NCBI GenBank assembly: GCA_963783575.1
Contig: CAWAOD010000015.1
Coordinates: 160,001-224,000, forward strand
From: an uncultured Spirochaetota bacterium
GTDB lineage: Bacteria; Spirochaetota; Brevinematia; Brevinematales; JAOACQ01
Direction: 5' to 3'
DNA: 64,000 nucleotides
Positions 11,859 through 46,170 of the stretch are shown here, piece by piece. Numbering within the stretch: position 1 is the stretch's first letter; each line of letters begins with the position of its first letter. The position numbers were made by a program, and so were the translations under genes. The notes below the pieces were generated by a model that ran no database searches, was not told the DNA's origin, and was given only the letters and a program-made list of their open reading frames with translations.

Positions 11859-11869
11859 CCCTTCGACAG

Positions 11870-23575: not shown

Positions 23576-23860
23576 ATTACCCTGCTTAATTCTTAATGTA
23601 GAAACAGTTAATAACCTTCAATATTTTTATTCTAACTATCCCATTATGAATTGTCAAGAGAAATTCTAACTGATTTATCGGTTAAACCACCGGATTTCAA
23701 CCCTTCAAAATTTATTTATGATTTAGATGTGCTTTTTAAAACTGAATGATCGAGTGGGCTTGCCGTTCCAGGAGAATTCGAGGCAGCCTGTTACGAGTGC
23801 GCCTGTGATATTTTCCTGGAACTGATTAGGGAATTTAACATACAATTTATTTGATAGAAA

Positions 23861-23944
23861 ATTTTATAATTTCCAGCCTTGGTAAGTATATTCAAATTCA
23901 AAATTATTGTCAAAATAAATCGAATTTTTCACCGCCAAAGTTTT
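23861..23944 (-). promoter_or_regulatory. Duplicated ~84-bp promoter block, copy A
   Basis: Minus strand TTGACA(23913-23908)-17 bp-TATACT; highly similar to 27698-27779. Confidence 0.7.
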
Positions 23945-25863: not shown

Positions 25864-27693
25864 TTATTTTTTCTGTTTTGAAACAGTGAACTTCGGAAGT
25901 GATTTGAGCATCGGCAGAATATAATTCTTGGTAACCGGCTTGAACCAGAATTTTGATGCTCCAGCTCCGCTGCCACTGACCGTCCATTGCATTATTGGCA
26001 TTGCCCCGGTTCCATTCGTGAGGCATATGAATAAACCCACATTGCTGATCCCGGAATTTATCGTCACTGCACCCGAGTAAAGTACTCCATCGTTTGTCAG
26101 GCTTATCCAGTTGCCATCTTCGATTATCCAGGCGCCGCTTTCAGTTGAAAGGTCAATAACAAAGTCGTAAGTCTTGCCTGGTATCAACTCTCCATCGGAA
26201 GGATATTGCAAAAGCCGGATAGTGTAACCTGGGGGATAATATGCCATAGGCACTTGAGCCTGAATTAACCAGGTGATCATGTCAAGTTTATTCCCTCCCA
26301 TCTCAGCGAATTCGCTGGCATACCAGCTGTAACCATCAGGCAGCGGAAGGTGCTGTGACATTTCAAGGATCTCATCGGCGGTATAACCGGCTGATAATAA
26401 TTCACCAACGTCGCCGTTAAATACCGGTGCATTTAAATAATCGTTAAGAGTCATACCGTTATAAAATAACAGCATATTTGTGTCAGCAGGATAATGGTTA
26501 AATGCGAAAAGTCTAGGGTCCAAGTCGAACAGAGAAGGCACGAAATAAGGACAGAAAACATTGCTAGAACTTACTCCTCCCGCTCCCCAGCAGCTATCCA
26601 GGAGGTGCCCTGCGCCGTCAATAAGTACGGCATTCCATACATGGGTGACATTCGGCGACTGCCCGCCATGCCCTCCTATAACCGTGGCCTGCAGACCAAG
26701 ATCTTCGGCCATTGCCATAAACAGCTCGGAATAACCCTCGCAAACTGCCTTCCTGTTGCTGAACACACCCTGAGGATCAACCTCTGTCGCCGCACCGTTA
26801 TTATATGCCACATCATAGGCTATATTGTAAGCAATCCAGTCATAAGCACCTCTTGCGCGGTCCCAGTCGTCCTGTGATACAGACTGGATATAGTTGACTA
26901 CATCCTGAATGCTGTCCTCGTAAGCCGCGGGAATGTTGCTTATTGCAATATCAAGGGCGGAAAAATTTCTAGATGTGCCTTCATTAGTTATAGTACCGCT
27001 ATTACACCAAGATGAGTAAGTGATTATTTCATTTGAAAAAATACTCCATCCGGCGGCCGATCGGTAGACTGCAGAACAACTGGAAGGAACGAAGAACAGT
27101 GTCCCCGGAACATTAGGCCCCCCATACCATCCGTCACAATCGTTAAAAGCCTCGGATCCTAGAGCAGGGGGAGTAATCGCCTGTAATGTAACGCTGTTAA
27201 GACAACAATACGTAAATGCGAAATTGCCGATACTCATAATGCTGGCTGGAATTGTAACAGTCGGAATGCTGCAGGCCCAGAATGCATATCGGCCAATGCT
27301 TGTAACACTGGAGGGAATGGTTACACCTGTAATGCCAGGCAAGCCACAGAATGCATCATAACCGATAGAAGTAACAGGAAGCCCATTATAAGTTGAGGGT
27401 ATAATAATATTCCCGTTTGTCGCTGTCCCCGCCGTTACGATGTAACCTCCGTTAGTGAGGGTGAAAGCAAGACCCGGTGTTCCGTTATAGGAATTATTTG
27501 TACTTGAACTGGAAAAGCTGCCGGTTGAGTCTGAACTGCTGCCGCCTGATGCTGAAGGTGTAACCGCGCAGCCTTGCAAAAAAATTAATAAAATTATTCC
27601 TGAAAGAATCACAGAGATGAAAAGGATGTTTAATCTGAAACTTACAAAACACCCCCACAATAATTTTATTGTTAATATAATACTAAATGACAT
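25864..27693 (-). CDS. Lipoprotein with BspA-like LRR (LRR_5) and transglutaminase-like domain
   Basis: LQGC lipobox, IPSSVTSIGRYAF repeats, AVCEGYS / HVWN / LDSCW triad. Confidence 0.85.
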   Translation of the reverse strand: MSFSIILTIKLLWGCFVSFRLNILFISVILSGIILLIFLQGCAVTPSASGGSSSDSTGSFSSSSTNNSYNGTPGLAFTLTNGGYIVTAGTATNGNIIIPSTYNGLPVTSIGYDAFCGLPGITGVTIPSSVTSIGRYAFWACSIPTVTIPASIMSIGNFAFTYCCLNSVTLQAITPPALGSEAFNDCDGWYGGPNVPGTLFFVPSSCSAVYRSAAGWSIFSNEIITYSSWCNSGTITNEGTSRNFSALDIAISNIPAAYEDSIQDVVNYIQSVSQDDWDRARGAYDWIAYNIAYDVAYNNGAATEVDPQGVFSNRKAVCEGYSELFMAMAEDLGLQATVIGGHGGQSPNVTHVWNAVLIDGAGHLLDSCWGAGGVSSSNVFCPYFVPSLFDLDPRLFAFNHYPADTNMLLFYNGMTLNDYLNAPVFNGDVGELLSAGYTADEILEMSQHLPLPDGYSWYASEFAEMGGNKLDMITWLIQAQVPMAYYPPGYTIRLLQYPSDGELIPGKTYDFVIDLSTESGAWIIEDGNWISLTNDGVLYSGAVTINSGISNVGLFICLTNGTGAMPIMQWTVSGSGAGASKFWFKPVTKNYILPMLKSLPKFTVSKQKK

Positions 27694-27697
27694 GATA

Positions 27698-27779
27698 TTT
27701 TATAATTTCCACTCTTGGTAATTATATTTAAATTAAAAATTATTGTCAAAATAAGTCGAATTTTCACTGACAAAGTTTT
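27698..27779 (-). promoter_or_regulatory. Duplicated ~84-bp promoter block, copy B
   Basis: Minus strand TTGACA(27749-27744)-17 bp-TATAAT(27726-27721). Confidence 0.75.
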
Positions 27780-27929: not shown

Positions 27930-29576
27930 TTATTTATTCAGTTCCTTTTCATCGGATAATACACAGTTTAAAGCCCTGTCCCATAGGACTATCCTGTATT
28001 TGAGAATGTTTACGGGGAATAATCCCAAATTTGCGGTTATTTCACCGGTAGTTCCGGGATTGGAATTTCTGCAAGCTATAATCTGTCCGTTTATCAATAA
28101 ATCCGCCCTCACGGGTTTAATTGTTGAGGCAGTATCACTTTCAAGCGAATATTTGAAAGAGAATAAATTATCCTTAATTTTGAAAGGTTCTGAAATTATT
28201 AAACTGATTTTTCCGTTAAAAGGATTGAAGAGTCCTTTCATACTGATAGCCCTTGCATCTCCCCAGCCATCCTGGAAAGGATGTTTTCCAATCCGGGCAT
28301 ATGTATTGTATAAAAATTTTTTTGTTCCATAAAGTTTGTCAGCCTTTCGATCAAAATAAAACCAGGGTTGCTGTTTCCAAGTCCGGAACGATTGCCGGTC
28401 TCCAGAAGCCCTATTGAATCGGGATCATATCCTGCCAGCAAAGCCTCAGCCGTATCGATAGAAACCGGGTCTCTAGATGAAAGAATGGCATGCGTCATAA
28501 TATAGTCAACAGGCTGCGCATAATCAAGGCTGGTTATGCCCCCGGTCGGGTTTGTCGGCCCCCTCCTGTTCCCGGTTAAACAATCCATAAGGATAAAATC
28601 ATATTCACGGACTTTGTGCTGTGCACAGAGATAATCCAGAAGATTCTGTTTTTTATGCATTCCGGTCATATCCCAGTAAAGGCCGCTATGCCCCCAGCGT
28701 CCGGTATCACCTTCCGAAGCCTGAAAAGGCCTGAAACCGTAATGCAGCTTCAGCGCTCCCGTTATACCGGTAATCCCATGGCTTTTAAAAACAGGCAAGC
28801 CGATCAGTATATCGCAGTATTCGTTTGTATCCGACCCGGATTTTACGGCCTGTTCCTTTGTACGCATAAATTTCGGCATCCAGACATTAATATAATTATT
28901 CTCGTTGTCTTTAACCTGGACAAGATAACGATCCTTAAAGTATACAGAATCAAGGTTCACTAATTGAGCTTTTGACGGACCGTCCAGATAGCCGTTGCCG
29001 TTTTCGTCATAGTCAACATTAACGCCATGATCCTCTTTCCAGGCGCGACCAATAAAAACTCTGCAGGTTATCTCTTGCCGAAGGGTTTTTATCCATGGAA
29101 TAGCAGGCATCCGCAACCTTCAAGCCGGCTGTTCCTTCAAAACCAATTATATCCCTGATTTTTTCAGCCATATACCGGGCAATCCTGGGGTCAGTTATCA
29201 CACCCCGGCCTTTATCACCGTTTTTTCCGACATACGGCCCGACATTGTTCACCTTTATAACTACTTTATCACCCTTTTTTATGATAACCGAAAGGCCGTC
29301 CGGGCCGAGAACCTGCGAGACGGCATCATCGATTATTTTTTTCAGTTCTTCATCATCCGGTTCCGCCCGCCTGGATACAAAACCCACCCTGGAAAGGGCT
29401 GAGGGTTTGTCATACTCCGATTGCACTTTTATTGAGCCGGCTTCCAGTATGAATGCCGCTTTGTCCGATCTTTGAACTGATTTATTGCCGCAAGCCATCG
29501 TAATTATCCAGATAACTGTCATTACCGCCAATAAAATTATAAGCCTCCATCTGATTTTAAAAGATGTTTTTATCAT
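27930..29576 (-). CDS. DUF362-family lipoprotein with C-terminal Ig-like domain; frameshifts near 29030 and 28320
   Basis: MAC lipobox; GDKVVIKVN, ITDPR, LPVFKSHGITGITGALK, SRDPVSID; three consecutive ORFs join by 1-bp shifts. Confidence 0.7.
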
Positions 29577-29594: not shown

Positions 29595-30631
29595 TTATTT
29601 CGGCGAAGCTTCGCCACAGAAGTATTTATACTCCGACCATCCGGAATTCGATACCCTGACCGTCTTTTTTGAATTGATGTCATAGCAGTAAAATTGAAAA
29701 ATACCGCTCCTGTTTGAGAAAAAAACAATACCTTTCTCATCCTTTGTAAACGCCGGGTAAAGTTCGCAGATCGAACCCGAAGGCTTTGAAATTACAACGG
29801 CATTGGATACTACCAAAGTCTTGATATCTATTTCTGCAGTAACAAGCGGATGCCCCGTATAGGAAAAATTTCCCATGACGTATCATATTCATAAGTTATA
29901 CGGGTTTCACTCGGGGATAAGTTCAGACGGGAAGGAAGCGCGTCAAGCAGGTAATAAAAATTCATCGGTTCATATTTTCCTATTTGACCGGGGCTTGCTG
30001 TTAAAAGATACATAAATGGTGGATGATAAAAACCTTTACTGTCCGGTCCGCTATTCTCAGTCCCTCCCCTTCCGCTTGTTGTTATTATTCTTCCGTCCCT
30101 GGTGCAGGTGCATCCGAACTCGCTGTATTCCGGGTCGCTTATCAAAAGTTCATCGCCAGGTTTGGAGTTAGGCGTTGTACGATAGATATGACAGCGCTGC
30201 AATTTGTTATCATAGCGGTTGATAATAATATAATTGGATTCCTCCCTCGACCAGGTAGGGTTATAATCGGTAAATTTGCCGCTTGTCAGCTGGCAGAAGT
30301 CCGTCCCATCGGGCCGGACAATACAGATGGCGGTTTTCCAGCGGCTTATATCAGGCCCGTTGTTTCCCGTTATCCTGAAAAAAACAATCCACTTCCCGTC
30401 CGCCGACCATGATGGTTTGTAATCGGGATGCCCACTTGTAATGGGCTTTCCTTCAGGCTTTCCAAGGACATTTACGTAAATTTCGTCATTCATTGAATAA
30501 GTCCCGGTTAAATCCGGCAAACCGGGGTTTGACACAGCGTTATCAGGGACAATTGCGGCATTTCTGCCGGCGCATCCTGTAAGCAGGATAGTTCCTAAAA
30601 TAACTATCAATCTTAAATAAAATAATTTCAT
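29595..30631 (-). CDS. TolB-like (PD40 repeat) beta-propeller lipoprotein; frameshift near 29875
   Basis: LTGC lipobox; DYKPSWSADGKWIVF, DYNPTWS; paralog of 30651-31676. Confidence 0.8.
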
Positions 30632-30650
30632 AAATCCTCCTCTTTCCTGT

Positions 30651-31676
30651 TTACTTGGGCGTTGCTTCACCGCAGAAATACCGGTAATCGGCGTATTTAT
30701 TAAAAGAAATTCTTGCCGTCTTTTTTGTTTTAAATTCAAAACAATAGAACTGATGCCTTCCTTCCCGGTTTGAGAAATAAACGATTGCATTTTCATCGCA
30801 GGTAAATGCGGGGTAGAGTTCCTCAACATCTGCTCTGGAACGAGAGAAAACCAGTGCATTTGATATTATAAGTTTTTTTATATCAATTTCCGCGGTTACA
30901 AGAGGATGCCCCTCGTATGAGAAATTTCCCCAGGATTGATCGTATTCATAGGCTATCCGTGTTTCTCCCGGTGATAAAGTCAAACGTGAAGGTAACGCAT
31001 CCAGTTTGTATTGAAAGTTCAACCGCTCGTATTTCCCAATTTTTCCAGGTTCAGTGGTCAGAATATATATGAAGGGCGGGTGATAATACCCGTCATTATC
31101 CGGGCTGAAAGAAAACATATAGCTGTAATTGTTCCCGCCTCCTCTTCCGCTGGATACAATCATACGCCCGTCTTTCAGGCAGGAAAAACCAAATTCACTG
31201 TATTCCGGGTCGCTTAGAAGAACCTCATCCCCCGGGTGGGAATCTATTGCTGTCCTGTATATAAAATTTCTGTTCTTTTCGGGATCAAAACGGTTTATAA
31301 TGATGAAGTTTGATCCTTCCCGCGACCATGTCGGATTGAAATCGGCAAACTTACCGCTTGTTAAGGTACGTAAATCGGAACCGTCAGGCTTTATTACACA
31401 AATGGCTGTTTTCCATTTCTTTATTTCCATACCGTTGTTAGCTGCAATACGGAAAAATACAATCCATTTTCCGTCCTGCGACCATGACGGTTTATGATCG
31501 GGGAAACCGCTCGTTACCGGTTTTCCTTCCGGATTACCGAGGCTGTTGACATAAATTTCATAATTAACGGTATATGCCCCCCGTAAATTTACATTATTAG
31601 CGGCGGTTGAATTTTCATCAGCGAAAATCATGCGGAAAATAATTAATGAAAATATAAAGAAAAGTATAGGCTTCAT
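30651..31676 (-). CDS. TolB-like (PD40 repeat) secreted beta-propeller
   Basis: Signal peptide; KPSWSQDGKWIVF, DFNPTWS, LSPGETRIAY, IVYFSNREG. Confidence 0.82.
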   Translation of the reverse strand: MKPILFFIFSLIIFRMIFADENSTAANNVNLRGAYTVNYEIYVNSLGNPEGKPVTSGFPDHKPSWSQDGKWIVFFRIAANNGMEIKKWKTAICVIKPDGSDLRTLTSGKFADFNPTWSREGSNFIIINRFDPEKNRNFIYRTAIDSHPGDEVLLSDPEYSEFGFSCLKDGRMIVSSGRGGGNNYSYMFSFSPDNDGYYHPPFIYILTTEPGKIGKYERLNFQYKLDALPSRLTLSPGETRIAYEYDQSWGNFSYEGHPLVTAEIDIKKLIISNALVFSRSRADVEELYPAFTCDENAIVYFSNREGRHQFYCFEFKTKKTARISFNKYADYRYFCGEATPK

Positions 31677-32821: not shown

Positions 32822-32906
32822 TTTGCTTGTATCATGAAAGTCACTAGTTAACGCTTGATTTTTCATTTATTTTATGACATACTATTTTCAATATAAGGGA
32901 TGGCAT

Positions 32907-34362
32907 ATGAATACTTCTTTAATTGATAAAAAAATGGATGAAATTAAGCTGCTTCAAAAATACATGGAAAATAAAATATCAGATTCCGCGATTGCTGATT
33001 TTTCCAAGGCACTTAAGAAACTTAAGGGCTGGGACACATTCAGAATCAACCCGGTCGATTTCTCACTAAAGAATAACCTTGAACCTGGCAAGACTATCGA
33101 TTTATTCATTTATGGCGCAAAAACCGGACTTTTTAATTTCGAACTGAGCCTTTTATGCCCTTTATGCGGTGGCCGCGAACATAGCTATAATTCCCTTAAC
33201 CAGCTTGAAAAAGAATCATACCACTGCTCACTTTGCGATGTTGACGTTGAAGTCCTGGCCGATTCCCATCTTGAGATTTCTTTTACAATACCGCCGGATA
33301 TCAGCGGTTTTTCTATCAATCCCTTTGTTTCTCTTGAAAACTACTGGTCTTATTATTTTTCATCATATCTAGTAATGCCCCCTGAATTGCAGTTAGTGTG
33401 GGATGATCAGCCTAAATTGAGGTTTGCTGCAATCCCGCCCGGAAGGAAAGTTTCTGTAAAAATAGGTCTTCCGCTTGTGAAAAAACACCGTTTTGTTTCT
33501 CTGAACACGCATTCGATTTTCAGGGTTAATATGCTTGGTAAAAAGGACGGACTTGTGCATAAAATCCAATTGAATCATCTGGAAAGCGGTTTTGACAAAA
33601 AAGAAGAAACCATTGAAGGCTGTGCAGGAGTGGTCAATATTACCAATAAATCCGGTAAAATGATAGGCTGTGTTTTCGCATCGCCGGATTCAAATCATAT
33701 TCAGGAGGTTGTAAAAGAATATCCACCCTATTTCAAGCCCTTTGTGACCGGAAAAATGATACTTAACAACCAGATTTTCAGGGACCTTTTCCTTACGGAT
33801 AATCTTCCCGATGACCTGTCACTTAAAATAAACGATATCACACTTCTTTTCACCGATTTGAAGGGTTCTACGGAACTTTATGATAAATCGGGGGATGTTT
33901 ATGCTTATAAGCTCGTCCAGCAGCATTTCAGAATCCTTCAAAAGGTAGTGCATGAGCATGATGGCGGAATTGTAAAAACTATGGGAGATGCCATAATGGC
34001 ATCTTTTAATACACCGTATGATGGAATAAGCGCCGCTTTTTCCATGCTCTAAGGAAATGAATATTTTCAACCGGGCTGTGGGCGTAAAAGAAAATCCGAT
34101 CGGATTGAAAATCGGCCTTCACCGCGGAAACGTTATTGCAGTCAAAGCCAACCAGACGCTTGATTATTTCGGGCAGACCGTGAATATCGCCGCACGTGTC
34201 CAGGGACTCGCCGGGTCCGGAGAGATTTGGGCCACGGATGATATTATGAAAGATAATAATACAACCGGTTACCTTAAGTCTTTAGGCTGCACAATAGTTC
34301 CAAAAGAAGTCGCGCTCAAAGGAGTCAGCAGCCATGTTAAAACCTATTTATGTTATATATGA
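32907..34362 (+). CDS. DUF5939-like domain plus class III adenylate/guanylate cyclase; frameshift near 34050
   Basis: RINP, CPLCG..CSLC, LLFTDLKGST, VKTMGDAIMA; continues LKIGLHRG, LDYFGQTVNIAARVQ. Confidence 0.82.
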
Positions 34363-34462: not shown

Positions 34463-36178
34463 ATGTTAAAATTCAACAAAAATCGGCTAGAATACATTAA
34501 ATTTTTTATAGTTTCTCTGCTATTTATTTTTATAAATAGTACAATCATTGCAGCTTCGGTTTCTACAGACACAAACCAGGGCAAAGCAGTTTTTATCAAC
34601 CAGGTGGGATACCTGCCGGATCAACAGAAGTGGATTGTTGCATCAAAAGGAGGCGATGAGTTTACGATTGTGAATGAGGACACTAAAGAGGTTGTTTTCA
34701 GGGGTAAACTTGAGAGCTTTGATGACCAGACGTCTGACCGTGATGTTTTAAGGGGAGAATTTACTCCGGTAAAAAAGCCGGGCAAATACCATGCCGAGGT
34801 AAAAGGAGCCGGAAGTTCATATGTTTTTTCCATCGGAAATGATGTTTACGATAATTTATTAAAAGATTCCTTAAGATTTTATTTTATACAGAGATGCGGA
34901 ATAGCTCTTCAGGATCAGGAAACAGGTATCAGGCACCCTGTCTGCCATTCCGAAGACGCATATATTGCCCGGGAAGACGGTTTTCACAAAAAAATGGACA
35001 AGGTGAACTCAACCGGTGGATGGCATGATGCCGGTGATTACGGAAAATACTCCACAACCACAGCCGTTACCGTGGCGCAGCTCCTTACGGTTTTTGAATT
35101 ATGGCCCGAAAAGTTTTCCGACGGGCAGTTAAATATCCCCGAAAGCGGCAATAAAATCCCCGATATTCTCGACGAGGCAAAGTACGGCCTGGACTGGCTT
35201 CTGACAATGCAAAGGCCCGACGGAGCAGTTTATCACAAAATCGCCGGAAGGTATTTTCCCGGGTTAAGTACTCCCGATTTCGATATGCAGAAGCGTTATA
35301 TTTATGGAATTTCCAGTTCCGATACCGCAAAATTTGCAGCGGTTTCAGCCATAGCCTCCCGTGTTTTTGAAAAAATCGATCCTGATTTTTCCGCAAGGAC
35401 AAAGAAGGCCTCGTTAAAGGCATGGGACTTTTTAAGCAGTAATAGTAATTTTATCTGGGACCATGACGATTTTGACGATGAGGGGTCCGGCTCTTATTTT
35501 GTCGTTTCGGACTTTAGGGACCGTGTTTGGGCGGCTCTGGAAATATCAGCTATTTCTGGTGATCCGAAAATAAAAGGATGGATTGAAACAAATCTAAACG
35601 ATTATTACCCGAACGCCATAACCTGGCGTGATGCTTCTTTACTGGGATTTTTGCACTACTGGAAGTCAGCGGACGCGGATAAAAAATTTAAAGATATGAT
35701 CGCCGGGAGAATTGCATCTATGGCGGACAATTACATGAAATCATCAGAATCCAGCGGTTACCGTTATTCCCTTTCATTCGACAATTTTTCCTGGGGCTCC
35801 AATGAAGACGGGTTGTCAAGCGGTATATCAATGATACTTGCCAACTATATTAAGCCGACGGCAGGATATTTAGCCGCAGCCCAGGCTCAGCTCGACTTTA
35901 TTCTCGGGCAGAATCCTCTTTCAAAGTGCTTTGTTTCAGGTTTCGGAAGCAATCCGTTAAAGAGCCCTCATAACAGACTTACAGCTTCGACAGGAATTAC
36001 ATTTCCCGGTATTCTGGCCGGCGGCCCGAATAATAAATCGGAATCCGGAATCGAACCCGCGGGAAAGGGTCCGTTCAGTTATACCGATTCCCAGGGCGCT
36101 TTTTCTTGCAATGAACCTGCAATCGATTACAACGCGGCGCTGGTTTTTGTTGTTGCAGCTTTTGCAACAGCGAAATAA
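34463..36178 (+). CDS. Glycoside hydrolase family 9 with N-terminal Ig-like domain
   Basis: Signal peptide, INQVGYLP, GGWHDAGDYGK, PDILDE, PHNR, NEPAIDYNA. Confidence 0.93.
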   Translation: MLKFNKNRLEYIKFFIVSLLFIFINSTIIAASVSTDTNQGKAVFINQVGYLPDQQKWIVASKGGDEFTIVNEDTKEVVFRGKLESFDDQTSDRDVLRGEFTPVKKPGKYHAEVKGAGSSYVFSIGNDVYDNLLKDSLRFYFIQRCGIALQDQETGIRHPVCHSEDAYIAREDGFHKKMDKVNSTGGWHDAGDYGKYSTTTAVTVAQLLTVFELWPEKFSDGQLNIPESGNKIPDILDEAKYGLDWLLTMQRPDGAVYHKIAGRYFPGLSTPDFDMQKRYIYGISSSDTAKFAAVSAIASRVFEKIDPDFSARTKKASLKAWDFLSSNSNFIWDHDDFDDEGSGSYFVVSDFRDRVWAALEISAISGDPKIKGWIETNLNDYYPNAITWRDASLLGFLHYWKSADADKKFKDMIAGRIASMADNYMKSSESSGYRYSLSFDNFSWGSNEDGLSSGISMILANYIKPTAGYLAAAQAQLDFILGQNPLSKCFVSGFGSNPLKSPHNRLTASTGITFPGILAGGPNNKSESGIEPAGKGPFSYTDSQGAFSCNEPAIDYNAALVFVVAAFATAK

Positions 36179-36811
36179 AAAAACCGCATACCCGCGGCAG
36201 TAGTACTTTCATACCTTCCTTCTTGAAAAAGCACCGCCCGAGGGGACGGGTCATTTACGGGAAGAACGCTGCGAAAGAATGTGACTTTTGCGTTCCCTCT
36301 GCGCAATCGTTGCGCTGCCGAACTAGCGTTCGACTGTCATTATGACTAAAGGGTGGATTTTATGGCGCGTCCTTGCGCCTAATCTGGCTTCCCTATTTTG
36401 TAAAAAACCAATTAACAACGGGGGTAGGACACCCCTTGATAGCTTTTGTTTTATAATAATTTCAATGCAGTACGTCAGTACTGCAAACGCCACGATGGCA
36501 TACGGGCACGCCGGCGTCCTGCCGGCTCGCAAAAGTAACATTCTTTCTCCACTTTACTATCCCGTAAATTTTTAGAATAAAACAGCCGGGATATTGTTAA
36601 ACAATTCTTTTGTTATCAGCAATAGTCCGAAATTACCGGTTCTTTCGATTTATTGGCCGGCTGTTCAAAAGGATTCTTTGATAAAAAAATTAGTAATCAA
36701 TAGATGGAATATTTGTACCCAATGTAGCTTGATTTTCACATATTAAAATAATTCTTTTATGATTAATAAAAGTCTGAATTTGAGGGTTCTTTCTGTTTTT
36801 GACCTGCTATC

Positions 36812-36841
36812 TTGACAATCAATAAATTAAAATGCTATAAT
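36812..36841 (+). promoter_or_regulatory. Consensus sigma70 promoter, module 1 (Pc-like)
   Basis: TTGACA-18 bp-TATAAT with extended -10 TG; 38 bp identical to 39816-39853. Confidence 0.85.
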
Positions 36842-36975
36842 AAAAATATTTATGTCCGTTGACCGGAAGTTTTATTTATTTTTTTAATAATATTTGCATT
36901 ACGGAAGTCTGAAGCCTCAATTATTACAATTATACCATAGAATTGAATATTGGAATAATCGATCACCAGTCCGTC

Positions 36976-37030
36976 GTCTAACTCAGTATATGCGCTCCGT
37001 TCTTCGCCTACGCTTGGGAAACGTTAGGAT
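36976..37030 (+). other. att-like recombination site at the cassette's left boundary (attI-like or degenerate attC)
   Basis: GTCTAAC(36976)...G/TTAGGAT(37023-37030); the core is the exact complement of ATCCTAAC at 39100. Confidence 0.6.
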
Positions 37031-37064
37031 GACGCGTTCAGCGCAAGGGAGAAGATAAATACTT

Positions 37065-37955
37065 ATGGAAGAACTCAAAATAGTCAAAATAAATGATAGT
37101 ATTCATCACATATATGAGTCATTAGGTGTTTATTGTACATTGATAGTTGGATCAAAAGCTGCTCTATTAATCGATACAGGTTTCGGGTTTGGTGATATTT
37201 TAGGTAAGGTAAAGACAATCACTAATCTACCAATAAAGGTAATAAATACTCATGGACATGTAGATCACATTCAAGGAAACAAGTTTTTCGATGACATAAT
37301 GTTACATAAAGATGATAGCAAACTAATAAAGTTTCATTCATCATTTCTACTGAAGTTATTTATCTATTTTGCGGAAAGAAAGAATCTGAATTTTGAAGAG
37401 AAAAAGAATACATCAAAGTTTTTCCAGAAAAACATCCAGAAATTAGAGTATGTAAGTGACGGTTACTTAATTGATCTTGGAGATAGAGTTCTGGAAATAA
37501 TACATATGCCGGGACATACCCAAGGTTCTATTTGTATATTAGATAAAAAGGATCGAATATTGTTTTCTGGAGATTCAATCTCAAATGATATTTGGCTGTT
37601 CCAAAAAGAATCAACTACAGTAAATAAATTTATGGAAAGTATGTCAAAAGTTATAAAACGGAAATCAGAGTTTGATGTAATTATATTTTCACATTCATCT
37701 GTACTATTTAAAACAACAATATTGGAGAAGATACTCAATTGTGTGAGGAATATAGATATTCAGAAAAGTTATAGTTATAATTTTCATTTAGCGGGGAAGG
37801 CGCTAGTATACAGTGAAGGGTTTGAAAAAATGCAATTAAAATATGGTTACAAAACATTTGAAGAATTTCAAAAACATGCAAATGAATTCGATCAAAAAGA
37901 TATAGCAGATGGTGAATTTGTATCAATAGCATATTCAAAGATAAAATTAAGCTAG
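37065..37955 (+). CDS. MBL-fold metallo-hydrolase (cassette gene)
   Basis: LIDTG, THGHVDH, PGHTQGS, FSGD; AT-rich codon usage. Confidence 0.9.
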   Translation: MEELKIVKINDSIHHIYESLGVYCTLIVGSKAALLIDTGFGFGDILGKVKTITNLPIKVINTHGHVDHIQGNKFFDDIMLHKDDSKLIKFHSSFLLKLFIYFAERKNLNFEEKKNTSKFFQKNIQKLEYVSDGYLIDLGDRVLEIIHMPGHTQGSICILDKKDRILFSGDSISNDIWLFQKESTTVNKFMESMSKVIKRKSEFDVIIFSHSSVLFKTTILEKILNCVRNIDIQKSYSYNFHLAGKALVYSEGFEKMQLKYGYKTFEEFQKHANEFDQKDIADGEFVSIAYSKIKLS

Positions 37956-39090
37956 TGCTTAATTGCGTAAGTTAACGATAGTATTTCTTAATTGAGAACC
38001 TTTCACTTCCCGTTTTCTCCACACAAAAGGTTTTGCGGTTTCAGTGTATGCTTTAACAAATGCATCTATTGCTTCTCTCAATTCTTCCGTGTTTTTAAAA
38101 CTGGCGCCTCTAAGAGCTTTTCGGCTCATAATACCAAACCATATTTCCACCTGATTTAACCAACTTGCCGAAGTAGGCGTGTAATGAAAAAAAACATTCT
38201 TATTCCGGGATAACCATTCATCGTTCTTTTTGTGAATACAATAATTGTCTAAAATTACATGAATTTCTTTATCTTTTGAAACATCTACCACCACTCTATC
38301 CATAAACTCAAGAAATTCAATACGTCTTTTGTATTCAGTAGTTTGGGTGTGTATTAACCCTGTAGCTACTTCCAGCGCAGCAAATAGGTTCAGCGTTCCA
38401 TTTCTTTTATATGTACTTTTGTATCCTCTTACAATTTTTCCATTATCCGTCTCTACATAGCCGGTTGTCCTTTCCAACGCTTGAATACCAGGTTTTTCGT
38501 CTACAGATATAACCAATGCATTCATCGGCGGATTTAAATACAACCCAATAATATTTGTGGCTTTTGTCGAAAATTCAGGATCAGTGCTGACACACCAACT
38601 TCGCTGTCGGGATAAGCAAATTCCTTCTTTTCTTAAAACCCTCCATACCGCATGCGTTGATGTGTTTAAATGTTTTGCTAAAGCCGGACCATCCCAAATT
38701 GCCTGCCCGATAGGCGGTGTTTTTTCCAGAGTTTCTAAAACTTTGTCCCTGAAATTCTGCCCATATATTTTTGGCTTTCCTGACCTGGGCAGATCATACA
38801 ATCCATCAATTCCTTTTTGCTGAAATCTTTTTTTCCAATCAATAACCGTATTTGGTCTTATGTGAAGGTCAGCCGCAATCTCAGATACATTTTGTCCTTT
38901 CAGGCTATTGACAATTATTTTCGCCCTCTCTACAAGTCGCGCTTCCATAGTTCGGCTTCTCACCCAACTATCAAGAATAATTTCATCCGCTTTGGTGCAT
39001 GTTATAACTTGCGTTTTCTTAGACATACAACCTCCTTTTTTATGTCTAAGATTATAATTAATAACGCTTATTATTGCAATTAAGCACTAG
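37952..39090 (-). mobile_element. IS630-family insertion sequence (coordinates include flanking CTAG)
   Basis: Ends ctagtgcttaattgc / gcaattaagcactag; inserted at CTAG. Confidence 0.9.
37959..39026 (-). CDS. IS630-family transposase
   Basis: DLPRSGKP, SVDEKPGIQA, ILDNY, PTSASWLNQVEIWF. Confidence 0.95.
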   Translation of the reverse strand: MSKKTQVITCTKADEIILDSWVRSRTMEARLVERAKIIVNSLKGQNVSEIAADLHIRPNTVIDWKKRFQQKGIDGLYDLPRSGKPKIYGQNFRDKVLETLEKTPPIGQAIWDGPALAKHLNTSTHAVWRVLRKEGICLSRQRSWCVSTDPEFSTKATNIIGLYLNPPMNALVISVDEKPGIQALERTTGYVETDNGKIVRGYKSTYKRNGTLNLFAALEVATGLIHTQTTEYKRRIEFLEFMDRVVVDVSKDKEIHVILDNYCIHKKNDEWLSRNKNVFFHYTPTSASWLNQVEIWFGIMSRKALRGASFKNTEELREAIDAFVKAYTETAKPFVWRKREVKGSQLRNTIVNLRN

Positions 39091-39100
39091 TTGTTAATTA

Positions 39101-39159
39101 TCCTAACAACTGCTTTAGCCTGACTCGCCTTCGGCTCGCAGGTTAAGCAAATGTTAGCT
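39101..39159 (+). other. attC site (59-base element)
   Basis: TCCTAAC-aac-tgctttagcctg..hairpin..caggttaagca-aat-GTTAGCT; 59 bp, imperfect inverted repeat with an extra base in the left arm. Confidence 0.85.
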
Positions 39160-39815
39160 TGGCGAAAAATACAGAAGAGGATTTTTTAAAGTATTCGACG
39201 TATGGCACGGCACACAACGTCAATGTAGAATAAGTCTAATTTAAATTGCAGTTTTCTTCTCCATCCGGTTCCAAAAATTTTTGTTTGCCTGATAGCGCTG
39301 ATTTTCCTTAAAACAGGCCTCAAATCTAGCAATCTACTTTTTTGAAAAAGTGCTCCCAACCTTAAGATTAAAGAAATTAGATTGCTTAAATTGCCCTCCG
39401 CAGCATTAGCACCATTTCTGTGCGACATAGTGTTGCTCGCAGAACTGCCGTTCTGCACTGGATTATTGTTTTTAAGAAGATTTCATGAAGCATCCGAGGG
39501 CTCACTGAAAATCAGCATAAATCTTAAAATGTTTAATAAACAGTATTTTATTGGTGTCATATCCTATTTTATAGCAATGAGTTATAAATGCAATTAGAAA
39601 AGGTTGGTTATAGTTTTCAAATTTCAACTCATTTTTCAGTGAACCCGTCCTTGCTCCCTTGGTTACTTGGCTTCACTCCTAATTAAACAATATTTTTATG
39701 ATAAATAATTAGCTGAAATTAGTGGTTCTTTCCGATTATTAGCTGGCTGTTCAGGGTATTGGGTATAATTCACAAGTTTGTGGAAGAAAGGATATAGCTC
39801 TTTAAATAATGACAT

Positions 39816-39845
39816 TTGACAATCAATAAATTAAAATGCTATAAT
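39816..39845 (+). promoter_or_regulatory. Consensus sigma70 promoter, module 2
   Basis: TTGACA-18 bp-TATAAT, identical to 36812-36841. Confidence 0.85.
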
Positions 39846-39909
39846 AAAAATATGTCTATCCGTTGATCGGGATACTAAAAGTTTAAAGTTTGATATTTGC
39901 TAAGTTTTG

Positions 39910-39937
39910 TACTAACTTAGTATATTGCAAGTTAAAT
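39910..39937 (+). other. attI-like site
   Basis: TACTAAC-ttAGTATAT-tgcaa-GTTAAAT (GTTRRRY core) 42 bp before the ATG; shares ctaact(c/t)agtatat with the 36976 site. Confidence 0.45.
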
Positions 39938-39972
39938 GCAATTTGCTGCCAATCAGATTTAAGGAGTAAACT

Positions 39973-41523
39973 ATGGCAAAAGTAAATTTGGATGCATTAA
40001 TTCCAAGAGAAGATTTTGAAACAGAAGAAACAATGAAACCGGGTAAAAAAAAGGAAACTATTTCTATAGAAGATTTGAAAAACGAATCTTTCTTTTTACC
40101 ATTCTTAAGAAAACCAGACTTTCAAAGAGAAACTAATGAATGGGATGCAGACAGAATATCTCAATTTATAGAAAGTTTTATACACGGCGATTTAATACCT
40201 GCTCTTATTTTATGGAGAAGCTCAACAGGTTTTATTTTTGTAATTGATGGCGCTCATAGATTGAGTTCTTTAGTTGCCTGGATAAATGATGACTATGGAG
40301 ATGGAAAGTCTTCGAAATTATTTTATGATGGTATAATTCCTGAAGATCAAATCAATATTGCTGAAGAAATGAGAAGAACTATTAGAAAGGGAATTGGAAC
40401 TTATGAAGACTATAAATTAGCTCTTACTAATCCAGATAAAGTTAAGCCTTTTATAGTCCAATTATCAAAAAACCTTGGTGCATTAGCTATTCAACTTCAA
40501 TGGGTTGAAGGAGATGTTAAAACTGCTGAAACATCTTTCTTAAAAATTAATCAACAAGCTGCACCTATTGATCCAACTGAATTGAAACTTCTTGAATCAA
40601 GAAGAAAACCTAATTGTATTGCTGCCAGAGCTATCATTAGAAGTGGTAAAGGTCATAAATATTGGTCAAAATTTGATTCTGACAATCAAAATAAAATTCA
40701 AGATATTGCTAAGGAAATTAATGAGATTCTTTTCTCACCAAAACTTCAAACACCTATTAAAACATTAGATATTCCAATTGGTGGCAAGTTATATTCTGCT
40801 CAAACTTTACCTTTGATTTTAGATTTTGTTAATATTGCAAATAACATCAAGAGTGACTTCAAAGACTCTTTAATAGATGATGAAAATGGTAATGCAACAA
40901 TTGAAATTTTAAATAAAACTCGTAAACTTGCACAAAGAATTAATAGTATTCATCCATCTTCTTTGGGATTACATCCAATTGTGTATTTTTATTCTCAAGA
41001 GGGTAGGCATAAAACCGCTTCGTTTTTTGCAACAGTTTCATTTGTTATGGATCTTGAAAAAAGAAATAAATTTAATGATTTTATAAAAGTAAGAGAAAAT
41101 TTCGAGGATATTATATTAGATTATGATTATTTAATACAACAAATATTTCGGAAGTATAGGGGTGCAATTGCAAGTTACCCATATATAAAAGCATTCTTTT
41201 TAAAAGTAATTGATCTTTTAAATCAAGGTATTTCCAAAGATAAAGTAATCGATAATTTAATATCATTTCAAGAATTCAATTATTTAACTTTATACAAAGA
41301 AAAACAAGATATATCTACAAAAGACTTTAATACAGAAAGAAAAAGTGCAGTTTATATTAGAGACGCACTAAAATCTGCACCTAGGTGTAAAATTTGTAAT
41401 GGCTATCTTCATAGAAATTCAATTAGCATAGATCATATACAAAGAAAAGAAGATGGTGGGCTAGGAACTATTGATAATGGCCAAATTAGCCACCCATACT
41501 GTAACTCAACCTACAAAAATTAA
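39973..41523 (+). CDS. DUF262 (GmrS/ParB-like) plus C-terminal HNH nuclease; GmrSD-like putative defence protein
   Basis: PDFQR, IPALILW, VIDGAHR, FLKINQ; C-terminal CKIC..IDHIQ..GG..N..HPYCN. Confidence 0.82.
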   Translation: MAKVNLDALIPREDFETEETMKPGKKKETISIEDLKNESFFLPFLRKPDFQRETNEWDADRISQFIESFIHGDLIPALILWRSSTGFIFVIDGAHRLSSLVAWINDDYGDGKSSKLFYDGIIPEDQINIAEEMRRTIRKGIGTYEDYKLALTNPDKVKPFIVQLSKNLGALAIQLQWVEGDVKTAETSFLKINQQAAPIDPTELKLLESRRKPNCIAARAIIRSGKGHKYWSKFDSDNQNKIQDIAKEINEILFSPKLQTPIKTLDIPIGGKLYSAQTLPLILDFVNIANNIKSDFKDSLIDDENGNATIEILNKTRKLAQRINSIHPSSLGLHPIVYFYSQEGRHKTASFFATVSFVMDLEKRNKFNDFIKVRENFEDIILDYDYLIQQIFRKYRGAIASYPYIKAFFLKVIDLLNQGISKDKVIDNLISFQEFNYLTLYKEKQDISTKDFNTERKSAVYIRDALKSAPRCKICNGYLHRNSISIDHIQRKEDGGLGTIDNGQISHPYCNSTYKN

Positions 41524-41858
41524 CCCGATTGGATGGAAATGGATTTATAAAATAAGCTTGCTAATGTGCCCCCCGCAGCATTAACGCTATTTCTGATTGA
41601 GCTTTTATTTGATTCAAAGGAAGCTCAATATAAAAATCGTTGTTATTCCCATTTAATAATAAATCGATCTGTTCGTATTTCGCGGACAGGAAGTTCGCGA
41701 CCCGAACGCAGCCCGGACTGCAAAGTGAGGTTCTTTAATTATTGGAAATGATAAACTAATTTACCAGGGTAGCAATAAATGAAATTCCCATACCTGTCAC
41801 AAACAGATTTCCCATAGGGGGAAATAGAAGTTAAACTTTAATGAAAATTCATTAAAGG

Positions 41859-43421
41859 ATGGCAGGAATGGTGAAAAATATTATGTATCAGGACATAAAA
41901 AAACTGAAACTTTTGGGGAAAAGTAAAAATGGTGTATCCCGGGAACTGTCAATAGATATTAAGACAGTCCGGAAATATTGGACTATGAACGATGCTGAAT
42001 ACCAGAAAAGCCTGATGGAATTCTCTTTCCGTGAAAAAGAATTCGAAGGAATAAAAACAGACATATTGAAAGTATATGCAAAGAATGATTACATCCGGCT
42101 GAATATGTCTGCTTTGTATGACTATTTATTGGAGGTAAAAGGCAAACTACCGGCGAATGAAAATACGATGAGGAATTTCGTACATTACCTGATTGAAAGC
42201 GGGCAGCTTACCTTGAATGAAAAGCGACGGTATTACACAAAAGTGCCGGACATGCCATATGGAAAGCAGCTCCAGCTTGATTTCGGTCAATATACCGACA
42301 GATATGGCAGAAGGTATTACATATTTGCCGCGGTGTTATCCGCCAGTCGTTTTAAGTATGCGGCCCTCCAGGAGAGGCCATTCCGGACAGAAGACCTGAT
42401 CAATCATCTGTTGGACTGTTTCGCATATATGGGCGGGATACCGCATGAACTTGTCATCGATCAGGACTGCACGATGGTTGCGAGTGAGAACTCAGGCGAT
42501 ATCATCTACACGAAAGACTTTCAGTATTTCATCGGGGAAATGGGTCTTAAATTGTATGTATGCCGGCCTTCAGACCCGGAAAGTAAGGGAAAGATTGAAA
42601 ACGTAGTCAAATTCATCAAGCACGGTTTCTTCTCAGTCCGGGAGTTCAACAGTTTAATGGAAGCGGAAGAAAGCCTGATGAAATGGCTGGAAAGAAAAGC
42701 CAACGGGAGAATATCCCAGGCTACAATGAAAATACCACTGATAGAGATTGAAACGGAAAGACCATATCTCCAATCTGTCAGGAATTCGATATTCCGTAAA
42801 GACAGGATAGGAGCAAGGGAAGAGCGCAGTGTAAGCGATAAATGCCGGATCGCAGTTGATGCAAGCCAGTATGATATTCCCGAAAAATACAGGAACGGTT
42901 CGGTGGACATCTACAAGACGGGCAGTCGGCTTTTTGTCTTTGACAGGATAACGGGAGAGCAAATCGCCGAATACCGGCTTTCAGTGATTCCGGGGCAGAT
43001 TGTAACCAACAGGGCAATGATCCGGGAAATGGGAAAGAGTGTGCAGTTATTGAAAGAAGAAGTAAGCGGGTACTTTGATATTCCCGGCTGGAAGGATTTT
43101 CTTGAATGTAATTTCAGGAAGTTCAATCGTTATGTAAGGGACCAATGTCTTTCCGGAAGAAAATACTTCAGGGACAAGATAATTGATACCGGGAAGCTTA
43201 CACAAGCGATCTCAAACTGCCTGGAGAGTGATAGTTATTCCATGAAGGATTTGTGGGATAATTACCTGAACTGTTTTATAACAGAAAAGGCAGAAATACC
43301 CTTGAATGTTGAAAAGATTGTCAGGCCTTCAGTGAATCCTGAACACTATCTTGAAGTAGCTAAATCAGACATCGGGAAATACCAGAGTTTCTGTGACTCC
43401 ATCGGGGGCCGGCAATGTTGA
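41859..43421 (+). CDS. istA: IS21 transposase
   Basis: N-terminal HTH (KTVRKY), QLDFG, GGIPHELVIDQD, SKGKIENVVKFIK. Confidence 0.92.
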   Translation: MAGMVKNIMYQDIKKLKLLGKSKNGVSRELSIDIKTVRKYWTMNDAEYQKSLMEFSFREKEFEGIKTDILKVYAKNDYIRLNMSALYDYLLEVKGKLPANENTMRNFVHYLIESGQLTLNEKRRYYTKVPDMPYGKQLQLDFGQYTDRYGRRYYIFAAVLSASRFKYAALQERPFRTEDLINHLLDCFAYMGGIPHELVIDQDCTMVASENSGDIIYTKDFQYFIGEMGLKLYVCRPSDPESKGKIENVVKFIKHGFFSVREFNSLMEAEESLMKWLERKANGRISQATMKIPLIEIETERPYLQSVRNSIFRKDRIGAREERSVSDKCRIAVDASQYDIPEKYRNGSVDIYKTGSRLFVFDRITGEQIAEYRLSVIPGQIVTNRAMIREMGKSVQLLKEEVSGYFDIPGWKDFLECNFRKFNRYVRDQCLSGRKYFRDKIIDTGKLTQAISNCLESDSYSMKDLWDNYLNCFITEKAEIPLNVEKIVRPSVNPEHYLEVAKSDIGKYQSFCDSIGGRQC

Positions 43422-44164
43422 AGATAAGAGAACAAATCATAACTGCGCTTACAACTCTCGGGTTGAAGGGTATGATAAAACGGATTGATGAGGAAATTGG
43501 TGAGGCTGAAAAGGCAAAAGAGTCTTATCTGAGTTTTCTGCAGAGGCTGCTTTCTCTGGAATTGAATTATAGAGTGGAAAAACGTTTTCAGCGGAATATG
43601 GCAGGAGCACACTTCCCGGTCCGCAAAGATGTGGAAGGTTTTAATTTTGAAAAAGTGAATGGAATATCTAAAATGGATGTTTCACAGCTATTGGATTTCT
43701 GCTGGATTGATAATCATCATAACCTGTTGTTCTTTGGGTCTCCGGGGCTGGGGAAAACGCATCTGGCAATTAGTATCGGAATCCGGGCAGTTGAAAAGGG
43801 ATATATTGTCTGCTTTGAAAGGATGACTACTCTCATTAAGTTTCTGAAAACGGCGGACATCCAGAGAAGCTCTGCTTTCAGGCTGAACCGGATGATGAAG
43901 TCACACTTATTAATCATTGATGAGATAGGTTACACGCCTATCGAAAAGAAGGAGGCAAATCTATTCTTTAGTCTTGTAAGTGAATTGTATGAAAAGACAT
44001 CGATAGTGATAACATCGAATAAGGGATTTCAGGATTGGGCTGAAATGATGGGAGACCCGATTATGACAACCGCTCTTCTGGACAGGCTTTTACATCATTC
44101 AAATATTTATAACTTGAGCGGAGAATCTTACAGAATACAAAATTTGAATAAGGAGGTTGAGTAA
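43415..44164 (+). CDS. istB: IS21 helper AAA+ ATPase
   Basis: GSPGLGKTHLA, LLIIDEIGY, ITSNK, LLDRLLHH. Confidence 0.95.
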   Translation: MLKIREQIITALTTLGLKGMIKRIDEEIGEAEKAKESYLSFLQRLLSLELNYRVEKRFQRNMAGAHFPVRKDVEGFNFEKVNGISKMDVSQLLDFCWIDNHHNLLFFGSPGLGKTHLAISIGIRAVEKGYIVCFERMTTLIKFLKTADIQRSSAFRLNRMMKSHLLIIDEIGYTPIEKKEANLFFSLVSELYEKTSIVITSNKGFQDWAEMMGDPIMTTALLDRLLHHSNIYNLSGESYRIQNLNKEVE

Positions 44165-44376
44165 CCATTCTTGCCTCCTCCTATGGGAAAAACTCCCGTG
44201 GAAGGGGTGGGAAATTACCCGAGTACAGGTATGGGAAAAACTCTTGACATTTCCAATTATGAGAAAATCTTTAATAAACCTGGAATAACAACACCTCTGT
44301 ATAAACCGATTGCTTCACATGAAATGGCGTTCATGCGAAGGGGACGCCTTTTTCTTTGATTACTTTCTTTTTCCGC

Positions 44377-46110
44377 GGCCTTGTCTGTCGAAAAACTATA
44401 AAAAGAGAAAAAGCGATTTTCTATAACATTCGGATATCACATTTGATTTCTAGGATATCCGAAAATTAATCTCATATACAATTTATTATAGCTTAAATTA
44501 CATAATTACACTCCTGTACCATTTTATATCATTCTCATATACTCAATCCTTTGCATATTACAGCCTGAAAATATTTTCCCAAATTATGTGAAGTGGAATT
44601 CCAGAGCCAATCCATTTCTACTTTTTCTTTTCCACGATAATAGGTTTGAGAAAAATCTTTCTGCGTTTTAAGGTTGGCAAAATTGTGTTCCTTTCCAATT
44701 CTCTTGCTGTATATCTTTTGCCCTTCATCACTTCTCAATTTATTAAGATAACTGTCGATTTCCTTTCTGTTCTCTAACTCAAACAGATTGAAATTTACAG
44801 TCTTTTGGTTTCTGCTGGGATTTATGTTCGTATAACATTCCTTATTATTTTCACATTCCTTACATTGTGATCGATTATAGAAAAAGTGGATTTTGCCTCT
44901 TTTATCATCAATGTATCCTTTGGTATTTAATCCACCACAGCACTTTAACCGATACTCTCTGTTATCACCTTTTATGATTTCAAAATTCTTTCTCTTTTGT
45001 ACCTCTTTCCCAAAATCTCTCTCTTTTATATCAATATAGCAATCCAATCCTTTTTCTTCCATTTCCAGAATGTCTGTCATATTTTGAAATCCCGAATCCA
45101 GCAGGTACTTACTTTCCTGCTTTACCCCCAATTCCTCTTTAAGCTTTTCCACTTCCTCAATCATGGGTTTCGCACTGTATTTCTCATTCAATTTATCGTT
45201 TTCACAGCTTAGTATTATGTCATTGTTACTGATCATCATTCTTATATTATATCCCTGAATATATCCGCTCTTGTCAGGCCCCAATGTAAGAGAGCTGTCG
45301 GGATCGGTTAAATTATAATGATCTTTGCCTGTAATGGTTTTGTCTCCTTCTTTTAATCTTTCTTCTTCAAGCATCTTTTGATAAACTTCCACCTGTTCCA
45401 TCACTCTGTTGTAAAGCTTTTCCTGACGTTCTATACGCTTTTTTTCAGCCATATACTTTTCTTCTTCCAATTCACCACGATTTAGTTTCTCATCTGTCTC
45501 CAAACTCCTTTTAACTACTTTGGTTGCCATTTTGCGGTAAGTTCTCATCACTTTGTCGGCTCTTTCCCTGGTCATCGTCTTTGACTTTGATGCATTGGCT
45601 TTGATTTTCGTTCCGTCCCCCACAACTACATCCCAATCAATCTCTCCTATGTTATTTAATAAAAAAAGAATTGTCGCAAACAGATTTGTAATTTCGTCAT
45701 CAAACTGGATTTTAAAATCGCAAAGCTTTGAATGATCTATGCTAAGACGGTTTGATACATACATAAATCCTATGTGGGTTCTGAGAAGATTTTCTACCTT
45801 GCGGCTGGAATGGATTCCTTGCAAATAACCATAGAGAATCGCAGATATAACATCTTGAGGATGTTTCCCTTTCCGCCCTGTTTCATCATTGGAATAATAT
45901 TTATCAAACCTTTGTATATCAATGTATTTCGCCACAAACTTTTTTAGAAGGACTTCACGGCTGTATTCATCGAATTGTTCCTGCAAATTGATGGCTAACA
46001 ATTCTCCCTGGTCTAGATTTCCTCTCTTATATCTCGCCATTGTCTTTCCCCTCTTTAATTTTGCAACTAACTATTATATCATATTTTCGGATTTTTCGAC
46101 AGACAAGGCC
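44377..46110 (-). mobile_element. IS1182-family insertion sequence (coordinates include flanking GGCC)
   Basis: ggccttgtctgtcgaaaaa / tttttcgacagacaaggcc inverted ends. Confidence 0.85.
44535..46040 (-). CDS. IS1182-family transposase
   Basis: LYGY..SSRKVE, DGTKIKANAS, NLTDPDS, IQGYN, LDSGF, EHNFANLK. Confidence 0.88.
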   Translation of the reverse strand: MARYKRGNLDQGELLAINLQEQFDEYSREVLLKKFVAKYIDIQRFDKYYSNDETGRKGKHPQDVISAILYGYLQGIHSSRKVENLLRTHIGFMYVSNRLSIDHSKLCDFKIQFDDEITNLFATILFLLNNIGEIDWDVVVGDGTKIKANASKSKTMTRERADKVMRTYRKMATKVVKRSLETDEKLNRGELEEEKYMAEKKRIERQEKLYNRVMEQVEVYQKMLEEERLKEGDKTITGKDHYNLTDPDSSLTLGPDKSGYIQGYNIRMMISNNDIILSCENDKLNEKYSAKPMIEEVEKLKEELGVKQESKYLLDSGFQNMTDILEMEEKGLDCYIDIKERDFGKEVQKRKNFEIIKGDNREYRLKCCGGLNTKGYIDDKRGKIHFFYNRSQCKECENNKECYTNINPSRNQKTVNFNLFELENRKEIDSYLNKLRSDEGQKIYSKRIGKEHNFANLKTQKDFSQTYYRGKEKVEMDWLWNSTSHNLGKYFQAVICKGLSI

Positions 46111-46170
46111 TGGAAAAAGAAAGTAATAAAGCCGCATTGCCGTGCTTTACGGCAAAAATTTATAGTTTTT

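Follow-up and report, generated by a model that had tools for sequence, protein, structure and literature searches.

Tandem, partly decayed promoter and attI-like heads of a probable integron-like cassette system in an uncultured Spirochaetota bacterium

This study concerns two neighbouring modules, each composed of a strong promoter, a candidate recombination site and an AT-rich gene, in a 64,000-nucleotide stretch of DNA from an uncultured Spirochaetota bacterium (contig CAWAOD010000015.1, positions 160,001 to 224,000; hereafter the window). The modules are probably tandem, partly decayed stand-alone heads (a promoter plus an attI site) belonging to an integron-like cassette system. A tyrosine recombinase encoded elsewhere, without the insertion specific to the integron integrase IntI, likely loaded them in trans; we infer this loading from sequence comparisons. 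We regard the system as a real feature, to which the window itself contributes the tandem layout and a classical cassette inside a non-classical array.

In the proposed mechanism, the insertion-less recombinase, acting in trans, would insert a cassette at G|TT, and the head promoter would express the first cassette gene. Head 2 would have retained a shortened core and a cassette with a GmrSD-HNH gene. At head 1, attI and most of the first cassette would have been lost by deletion, so that the promoter now likely drives the next cassette, which carries a gene of the metallo-beta-lactamase (MBL) fold; a visiting true IntI would probably have placed this cassette exactly at a GTT that follows a damaged attC site. 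The arrays are likely frozen, given the broken recombinase gene of this assembly, and appear to be undergoing erosion by insertion sequence (IS) elements and miniature inverted-repeat transposable elements (MITEs).

In the following sections, G000 denotes the source genome (assembly 89.85% complete), C-numbers its contigs, G-numbers the genomes of relatives and L-numbers fetched loci.

Promoter heads and their copies in the genome

A first-pass annotation of the window had reported two identical 38-bp promoters with an extended -10 element, and this was confirmed: 36812-36849 and 39816-39853 agree in 38/38 positions. Both read TTGACA-18-TATAAT with TG, and they are the sole 12/12 consensus matches among 27 in 36150-42000. 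At both modules, the promoter is predicted from sequence to lie upstream of the docking region and to be oriented toward the cassettes. The two heads are as follows.

36812..36866, plus strand: cassette promoter head 1 with the palindrome CCGTTGAYCGG (36856-36866); from 38/38 identity, consensus scan and alignment
39816..39870, plus strand: cassette promoter head 2 with the palindrome (39860-39870); from 38/38 identity, consensus scan and alignment

The palindrome lies just downstream of the predicted start site and is kept in 9/9 aligned heads, perhaps as an operator or as a hairpin at the 5' end.

G000 contains 13 copies of this promoter in total: ten with at most four mismatches, one with a damaged -10 element and two that are diverged. 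One extra match, at 8 mismatches, was discarded as spurious. Outside the window, each of the 11 copies has, within ~420 bp downstream, an attI-like site of the form TAATATACG..CGTATAT-N5-G|TT. When the downstream genes are listed, the first cassette gene differs at every head (a Pfam match was obtained for three of the eight scanned), and three promoter copies that are identical over 38 bp precede unrelated first cassettes. GmrSD_N genes come first at two heads, and at another (L018:1732-3078; C9:382 kb) the first cassette gene has a Pfam NADase_transloc (F5/8 type C) domain. The first-pass annotation had proposed dispersed platforms of promoter and docking site with no recombinase beside them; the 11/11 other copies with their different first cassettes bear this out, as do sites in five relatives. 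In the 64-kb window, tblastn detects no tyrosine recombinase.

Candidate attI sites were scored with a position weight matrix (PWM) of the 35-nt core over 9.8 M genome positions, and a covariance model (CM) of attI served as a second score. Note that only the longer profile is specific; the short attI motif alone is uninformative (16 genome matches versus 15-22 in shuffles). A strict attI pattern recovered 0/5 relatives, and the profile search performed better.

The heuristic attC scans overlooked most of the long attC sites, which were recovered by scanning for complementary arms. According to this arm scan, the cassettes of the head family begin at G|TT and close with a complementary arm of 18 nt. 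At position 11, the start arms of 10/10 heads have A. Among the 21 end arms, positions 8 and 11 are both G in 15; four others are a repeated IS-like end and two are irregular. The scan also returned nested long inverted repeats spanning ~4.6 kb at C6:13278-17943 and C11:346579-351180. Further attI-like junctions occur without this promoter inside an array behind IS-like ends (C13:208488 and C13:214037) and with other promoters (C14:80482 and C16:32451).

Composition of the two modules

The att sites and cassettes of the modules are listed below, in the order of their positions.

36937..36962, plus strand: what is likely left of a decayed attI, GTT missing; weak alignment to the attI region in seven other heads
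36966..36982, plus strand: end arm remaining from a long-armed cassette that was lost; the minus-strand reading has G at positions 8 and 11, as is typical of end arms
36978..37025, plus strand: damaged site 1, in the preferred reading an attC left half with no right arm, joined to GTT at 37023
37024..39153, plus strand: classical Treponema-type cassette with the gene (37065-37955) of an MBL-fold, glyoxalase-II-like hydrolase
37952..39090, minus strand: element of the IS630 family, target CTAG, situated between the stop codon of the MBL gene and attC; DDE_3
39101..39159, plus strand: canonical attC of 59 bp, whose L box has an extrahelical base; from its fold
39154..39333, plus strand: remnant in which one cassette's leader is joined to the end arm of a different, long-armed one (to 39218), with an attC stub and a repeated block that we take to be likely an IS1182-type end
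39895..39937, plus strand: collapsed attI with the core AGTATAT-TGCAA-GTT, crossover likely at G39931|TT; from alignment with full heads
39932..41547, plus strand: long-armed-type cassette with a GmrSD_N plus HNH gene (39973-41523); Pfam

Module 2 can be aligned with full heads as far as the first binding repeat, after which ~76 nt are skipped before the core; judging from this alignment, ~76 nt of the full head are deleted between the repeats. The core scores 11.0 bits with the 35-nt PWM, a value that 25 of the 9.8 M positions match or beat; it is degenerate but in register. The cassette behind it starts with GTTAAATGCAATT, which is also the start of the cassette at C5:467410. Its distal arm is eroded and lies directly behind the stop codon (41527-41547), with 17 matching columns, a number reached by 0.8% of 5000 control windows. 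The GmrSD-HNH gene has weak PADLOC matches and thousands of homologues across phyla, and is likely anti-phage. At the end of this second array (41743-46118), an IS21 element (13 copies) is directly followed by an IS1182-like DUF772/DDE element (6 copies).

In module 1, damaged site 1 agrees without gaps in 24/35 positions with the attC left half at C5:112737, its best match among 21, and does not fold (z +0.77). The same segment also reads as an inverted attI core (36974-36995), and the site is therefore ambiguous; we prefer the attC reading, though the profile scores favour the inverted attI, because it also accounts for the arm signature and for the continuation of the alignment. In a search for a pre-insertion allele, the left arm remained unpaired, with no right arm followed by GTT up to 44000. 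In a search for full-length homologues of the site, six exact 18-mer matches were found in the genome contigs, none of them attC-like, together with none in metagenome contigs and three weak, unrelated matches in 400 genomes.

The first-pass annotation had taken the GTT at 37023 for an attI core. It has a core PWM score of -12.9, which 285,016 of the 9.8 M positions equal or exceed, and is no attI under either reading of site 1. The shared motif CTAACT(C/T)AGTATAT also failed as a common sense site: GTT follows 5 nt behind it in module 2 and 31 nt behind it in module 1. In the 11/11 other heads, the module-1 14-mer is matched in at most 10/14 positions in sense, and in 11-12/14 positions in antisense within the attI region of seven of the 11; as judged from these matches, it is an attI flank in module 2 and an opposite-facing half-site in module 1. 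Each of the two GTT triplets (37023 and 39931) does lie 42 bp before an ATG, as had been claimed, but this agreement is a coincidence, since the distance ranges over 5-119 nt in 11/13 other heads with an open reading frame (ORF) within 400 nt.

The MBL cassette starts with GTTAGGAT, the exact 8/8 complement of R'' ATCCTAAC at 39100-39107. The bottom strand of its attC (39101-39159) folds with -11.2 kcal/mol (z -2.7), and no second attC of its type was found in the genome. On the strength of this canonical site, we class the MBL gene as a classical cassette of the Treponema type; the genome yielded no other. Homologues of the attC are present in 17/400 other genomes of the phylum and in 0/11 of its own family, and 5/5 of the tested genomes with a homologous attC have an IntI over the cut-off; among 14 cassettes behind such sites, nine match the leader of the MBL cassette in 10-12 of the first 14 nt. 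A database search with this attC gave only three matches, all weak and from plasmids. The Treponema-type label depends on co-oriented true IntIs, on PMC3607928 and on the repeat sequences of such integrons.

The MBL gene itself belongs to PF00753, all NCBIfam bla models are far under their cut-offs, and its close homologues are named glyoxylase-like hydrolases; a class B metallo-beta-lactamase was rejected as an identification, the gene being below all beta-lactamase cut-offs. No instance of this gene context was found in metagenome contigs or 400 genomes. The AT-richness noticed at first pass in both modules holds, the MBL and GmrSD-HNH genes having 29% GC versus 37% for the genome. Based on its attC and leader, the MBL cassette likely comes from a classical integron, and its import by a passing IntI at a secondary GTT appears more likely than by the resident enzyme. 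The IS630 element within it belongs to a set of 13 nearly identical copies, each of which has CTAG on both sides. In our own scans, the att sites of the window amount to one intact attC and two half-sites. The first-pass annotation had overlooked the folding attC, the IS630 element between it and the MBL gene, and a 149-bp MITE before module 2.

Recombinase, spread of the heads and alternative explanations

The sole integron-like recombinase gene of G000 is located at C5:457-458 kb and is directly followed by the attI-like site that also ends the heads outside the window, and C5:458 kb is the only place in G000 where an attI adjoins a recombinase gene. The earlier idea that the enzyme is IntI did not survive: no match in the genome reaches the TIGR02249 cut-off, our threshold for integron integrases, and the only candidate has no IntI insertion and contains two frameshifts. 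The IntI-specific insertion is absent from this recombinase and from five intact relatives, and present in five true spirochaete IntIs; the best PDB match of an intact relative's recombinase is VchIntI4 (2a3v), in two pieces flanking the insertion. The same attI-like site is found behind intact homologues (55-60%) in G011, G004, G002, G005 and G053.

In G004, one unit of cassette promoter (Pc) and attI occurs three times: behind the intact recombinase gene, within that array 5.7 kb farther downstream, and on a different contig. The repetition within one array mirrors the tandem of the window. The attI sequence model gave further matches in 21/60 relatives, many of which are weak and several of which are training sites. 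We therefore checked six candidate sites, from five genomes, that lie away from a recombinase stop. All six have a G|TT junction with A at position 11; at five of them, the 3 kb to either side contain no recombinase, and three have a matching distal arm.

Most of the heads are accompanied by a dispersed mosaic repeat, whose blocks in and around the modules are as follows.

36234..36667, plus strand: dispersed mosaic hairpin repeat, blocks A, A2 and B, its 3' end being the 39-bp block 36629-36667; BLAST
39357..39753, plus strand: mosaic repeat blocks, the 149-bp MITE (39498-39646) and the second 39-bp block (39715-39753)
41541..41742, plus strand: dispersed mosaic repeat block F, followed by the IS21 element; 39 BLAST matches

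Blocks A, A2 and B have 11, 32 and 20 BLAST matches in the genome, respectively, and the MITE has 20 copies. The B/E block lies 12-145 bp upstream of 8/11 closest promoter copies in the same orientation, which suggests how heads spread: probably together with the preceding mosaic repeat. The region 39357..39753 is 84% identical over 375 bp, promoter included, to a head at C4:27.2-27.6 kb. The 39-bp block upstream of both promoters had been considered part of the module. The similarity stands (36629-36667 versus 39715-39753, 32/39), but the block does not define the module; it is the end of the dispersed repeat, with ~20 BLAST matches, many of them without the promoter. No carrier enzyme for the mosaic repeat was identified. 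Two short matches to Y1 (IS200/RAYT-like) transposases lie beside block F (C3:121030 and C4:184483). At C3:121030, mosaic blocks stand on both sides of the Y1 gene in opposite orientations.

Several observations weigh against the interpretation of the modules as heads loaded in trans. Neither site in the window is a full attI, the attI of module 2 is weak with the covariance model (E 9.5), and the GmrSD-HNH cassette has no intact distal attC. The 13 genome copies dispose of the possibility that the promoter is confined to the window, but 60 relatives gave only short weak matches, so that the promoter is specific to G000 among the genomes searched. The G000 recombinase gene is spread over three reading frames, and probably represents a true pseudogene. 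Over 14.7 kb, the 13 copies of IS630 are free of indels, which argues that the breaks in the recombinase gene are real, although polishing may work better on repeats than on single-copy genes. The public contigs matched mainly IS elements, and the frameshifts lie outside their coverage. No empty version of the locus was found, and the flanking GH9 gene has no match in a same-genus genome (its homologues in relatives, in 3/5 genomes, reach 31-41%). Finally, G011 has three near-identical whole copies of recombinase plus attI (L029, L055 and L060), two with different first cassettes, by which the loss of a neighbouring recombinase gene is a possible history for the heads as well.

Such a history is the core of an alternative explanation, in which the heads are relics of whole units of recombinase, promoter and attI that were copied intact and later lost the recombinase, the cassettes having been acquired in cis and never in trans. 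Besides the G011 copies, it is favoured by G004, where the promoter is located between the recombinase stop and attI, and by the richness of the window arrays in IS elements and deletions. However, no recombinase remnant was found near any G000 head, the recombinase locus of G000 is without this promoter, and the sequence shared upstream by 8/11 heads is the mosaic repeat and not a gene end; the three identical 38-bp promoters in front of unrelated first cassettes also speak against it. We consider this explanation unlikely, though the strongest of the competitors. Far less probable still, at the other extreme, is that a mobile mosaic repeat or MITE simply includes the promoter, and that the genes arrived by unrelated horizontal transfer or through canonical IntI at secondary GTT sites. 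The frequent occurrence of the 39-bp block in repeats without the promoter is compatible with it, and the MBL cassette fits a secondary-site (attG/SALIN) insertion of the kind described in 10.1101/2022.09.11.507474. This explanation probably accounts for the MBL cassette alone; for the heads as a class it is contradicted, since it leaves unexplained the attI-like site behind 11/11 other copies, the identity of that site with the recombinase-adjacent site, and the arm pairs.

A further alternative concerns only site 1, which would be a deliberately inverted attI core, produced by inversion of 41 bp between CTAAC and GTTAG, and hence a flipped, possibly switchable docking site. Among 9.8 M positions, its minus-strand core GCGCATATACTGA|GTTAG takes rank 12 (CM E 0.013), the site is the top match of the window for both attI models, and its spacer equals that of the head at C4:7089. 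The profiles point the same way, with 11.3 bits (E 0.015) for the inverted attI versus 7.2 bits (E 0.4) for an attC left half, which counts against our attC reading. In contrast, the joined arm shows the cassette-end signature, the next 35 nt are in register with an attC left half, the upstream attI repeats are missing, and a decayed sense attI aligns further upstream; moreover, attC left halves and attI cores likely have a common binding motif anyway. We judge the inversion improbable, and retain the damaged attC as the preferred reading of site 1.

Elsewhere in the window, a DUF5939 plus guanylate-cyclase gene is apparently split into two frames (32874-34052 and 34057-34362), and two overlapping-ORF pairs on the minus strand (28238-29576 and 29595-30859) resemble frameshifted single genes, the second pair being a paralogue of 30651-31676. 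A 77-nt AT-rich direct repeat, 87% identical (23852-23928 and 27688-27764), surrounds paralogous genes at 24.4-27 kb and possibly represents duplicated regulatory regions. A 52-nt direct repeat (96%; 541-592 and 13575-13626) and a 35-nt inverted repeat (11859-11893 and 13537-13571) are likely IS ends and their target. In the genome, contigs C7 and C17 have 52% and 49% GC versus 37% for the rest, a possible sign of contamination or ribosomal RNA.

Comparison with known systems

If the interpretation of the modules as heads loaded in trans is true, gene capture requires neither an adjacent recombinase nor the IntI-specific helix, and pipelines that require this helix, as described in PMC9176274, would overlook the whole class. 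Many heads would provide many strongly expressed first positions at once, here with defence-type genes. A classical cassette in a non-classical array also lets one ask if an insertion-less recombinase handles a canonical attC, which bears on the origin of integron integrases from Xer-like enzymes. One may go further and suppose a second class of integron organized as a network, in which one insertion-less recombinase serves at least 12 self-promoting heads that spread independently, even in tandem, and accepts classical attC cassettes, thereby bridging both pools; we offer this only tentatively, and doubt it more than we believe it. In a literature search of partial coverage, no description was found of dispersed promoter-attI heads or of insertion-less cassette recombinases.

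In Treponema-type chromosomal integrons, intI is transcribed toward attI and there is one attI per integron (PMC3607928). The system described here resembles them in the co-oriented recombinase, the putative G|TT crossover and the promoterless cassettes, and the attC and leader of the MBL cassette are of this type. It is unlike them in that at least 13 heads correspond to one recombinase gene, that this recombinase is without the IntI insertion, and that long attC sites and arms of 18 nt characterize the resident cassettes. The insertion has been termed essential for integron function in an account of a subgroup of integron-like tyrosine recombinases (PMC8138268), whereas the recombinases here do not have it and yet adjoin arrays. 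Furthermore, attI is reported only beside intI in 10.1101/2022.02.06.479319. Of the features that define integrons, a folding attC with R'' complementing the cassette start is found in the MBL cassette, and only in eroded form for the GmrSD gene. The window system would work like an integron, but departs from the definition in the integrase domain (I2) and in the adjacency of attI and integrase.

Clusters of attC sites lacking integrases (CALINs) are, according to Cury et al. 2016 (PMC4889954), attC clusters only; Pc cannot drive a CALIN that has split off, and service by an integrase encoded elsewhere is discussed. The arrays described here are like CALINs in having no adjoining integrase, and unlike them in that each has its own promoter and attI-like head. 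The MBL cassette, a single canonical cassette at a GTT near a resident promoter, is similar to insertions at attG sites, or single attC sites lacking integrases (SALINs), as described in 10.1101/2022.09.11.507474; unlike there, the insertion point is within an array belonging to another cassette system and follows a purpose-like promoter. A SALIN is a lone attC with no other att site or integrase nearby, whereas att half-sites and a second head flank the attC here. For the collapsed attI of module 2, a precedent is given by mobile integrons, in which extra or truncated attI sites inside arrays can function (delta-attI-type cassettes and attI duplications; PMC12901181). Those are, however, class 1 and class 2 IntI systems on mobile elements, in contrast to the genome-wide, promoter-bearing heads of the present genome.

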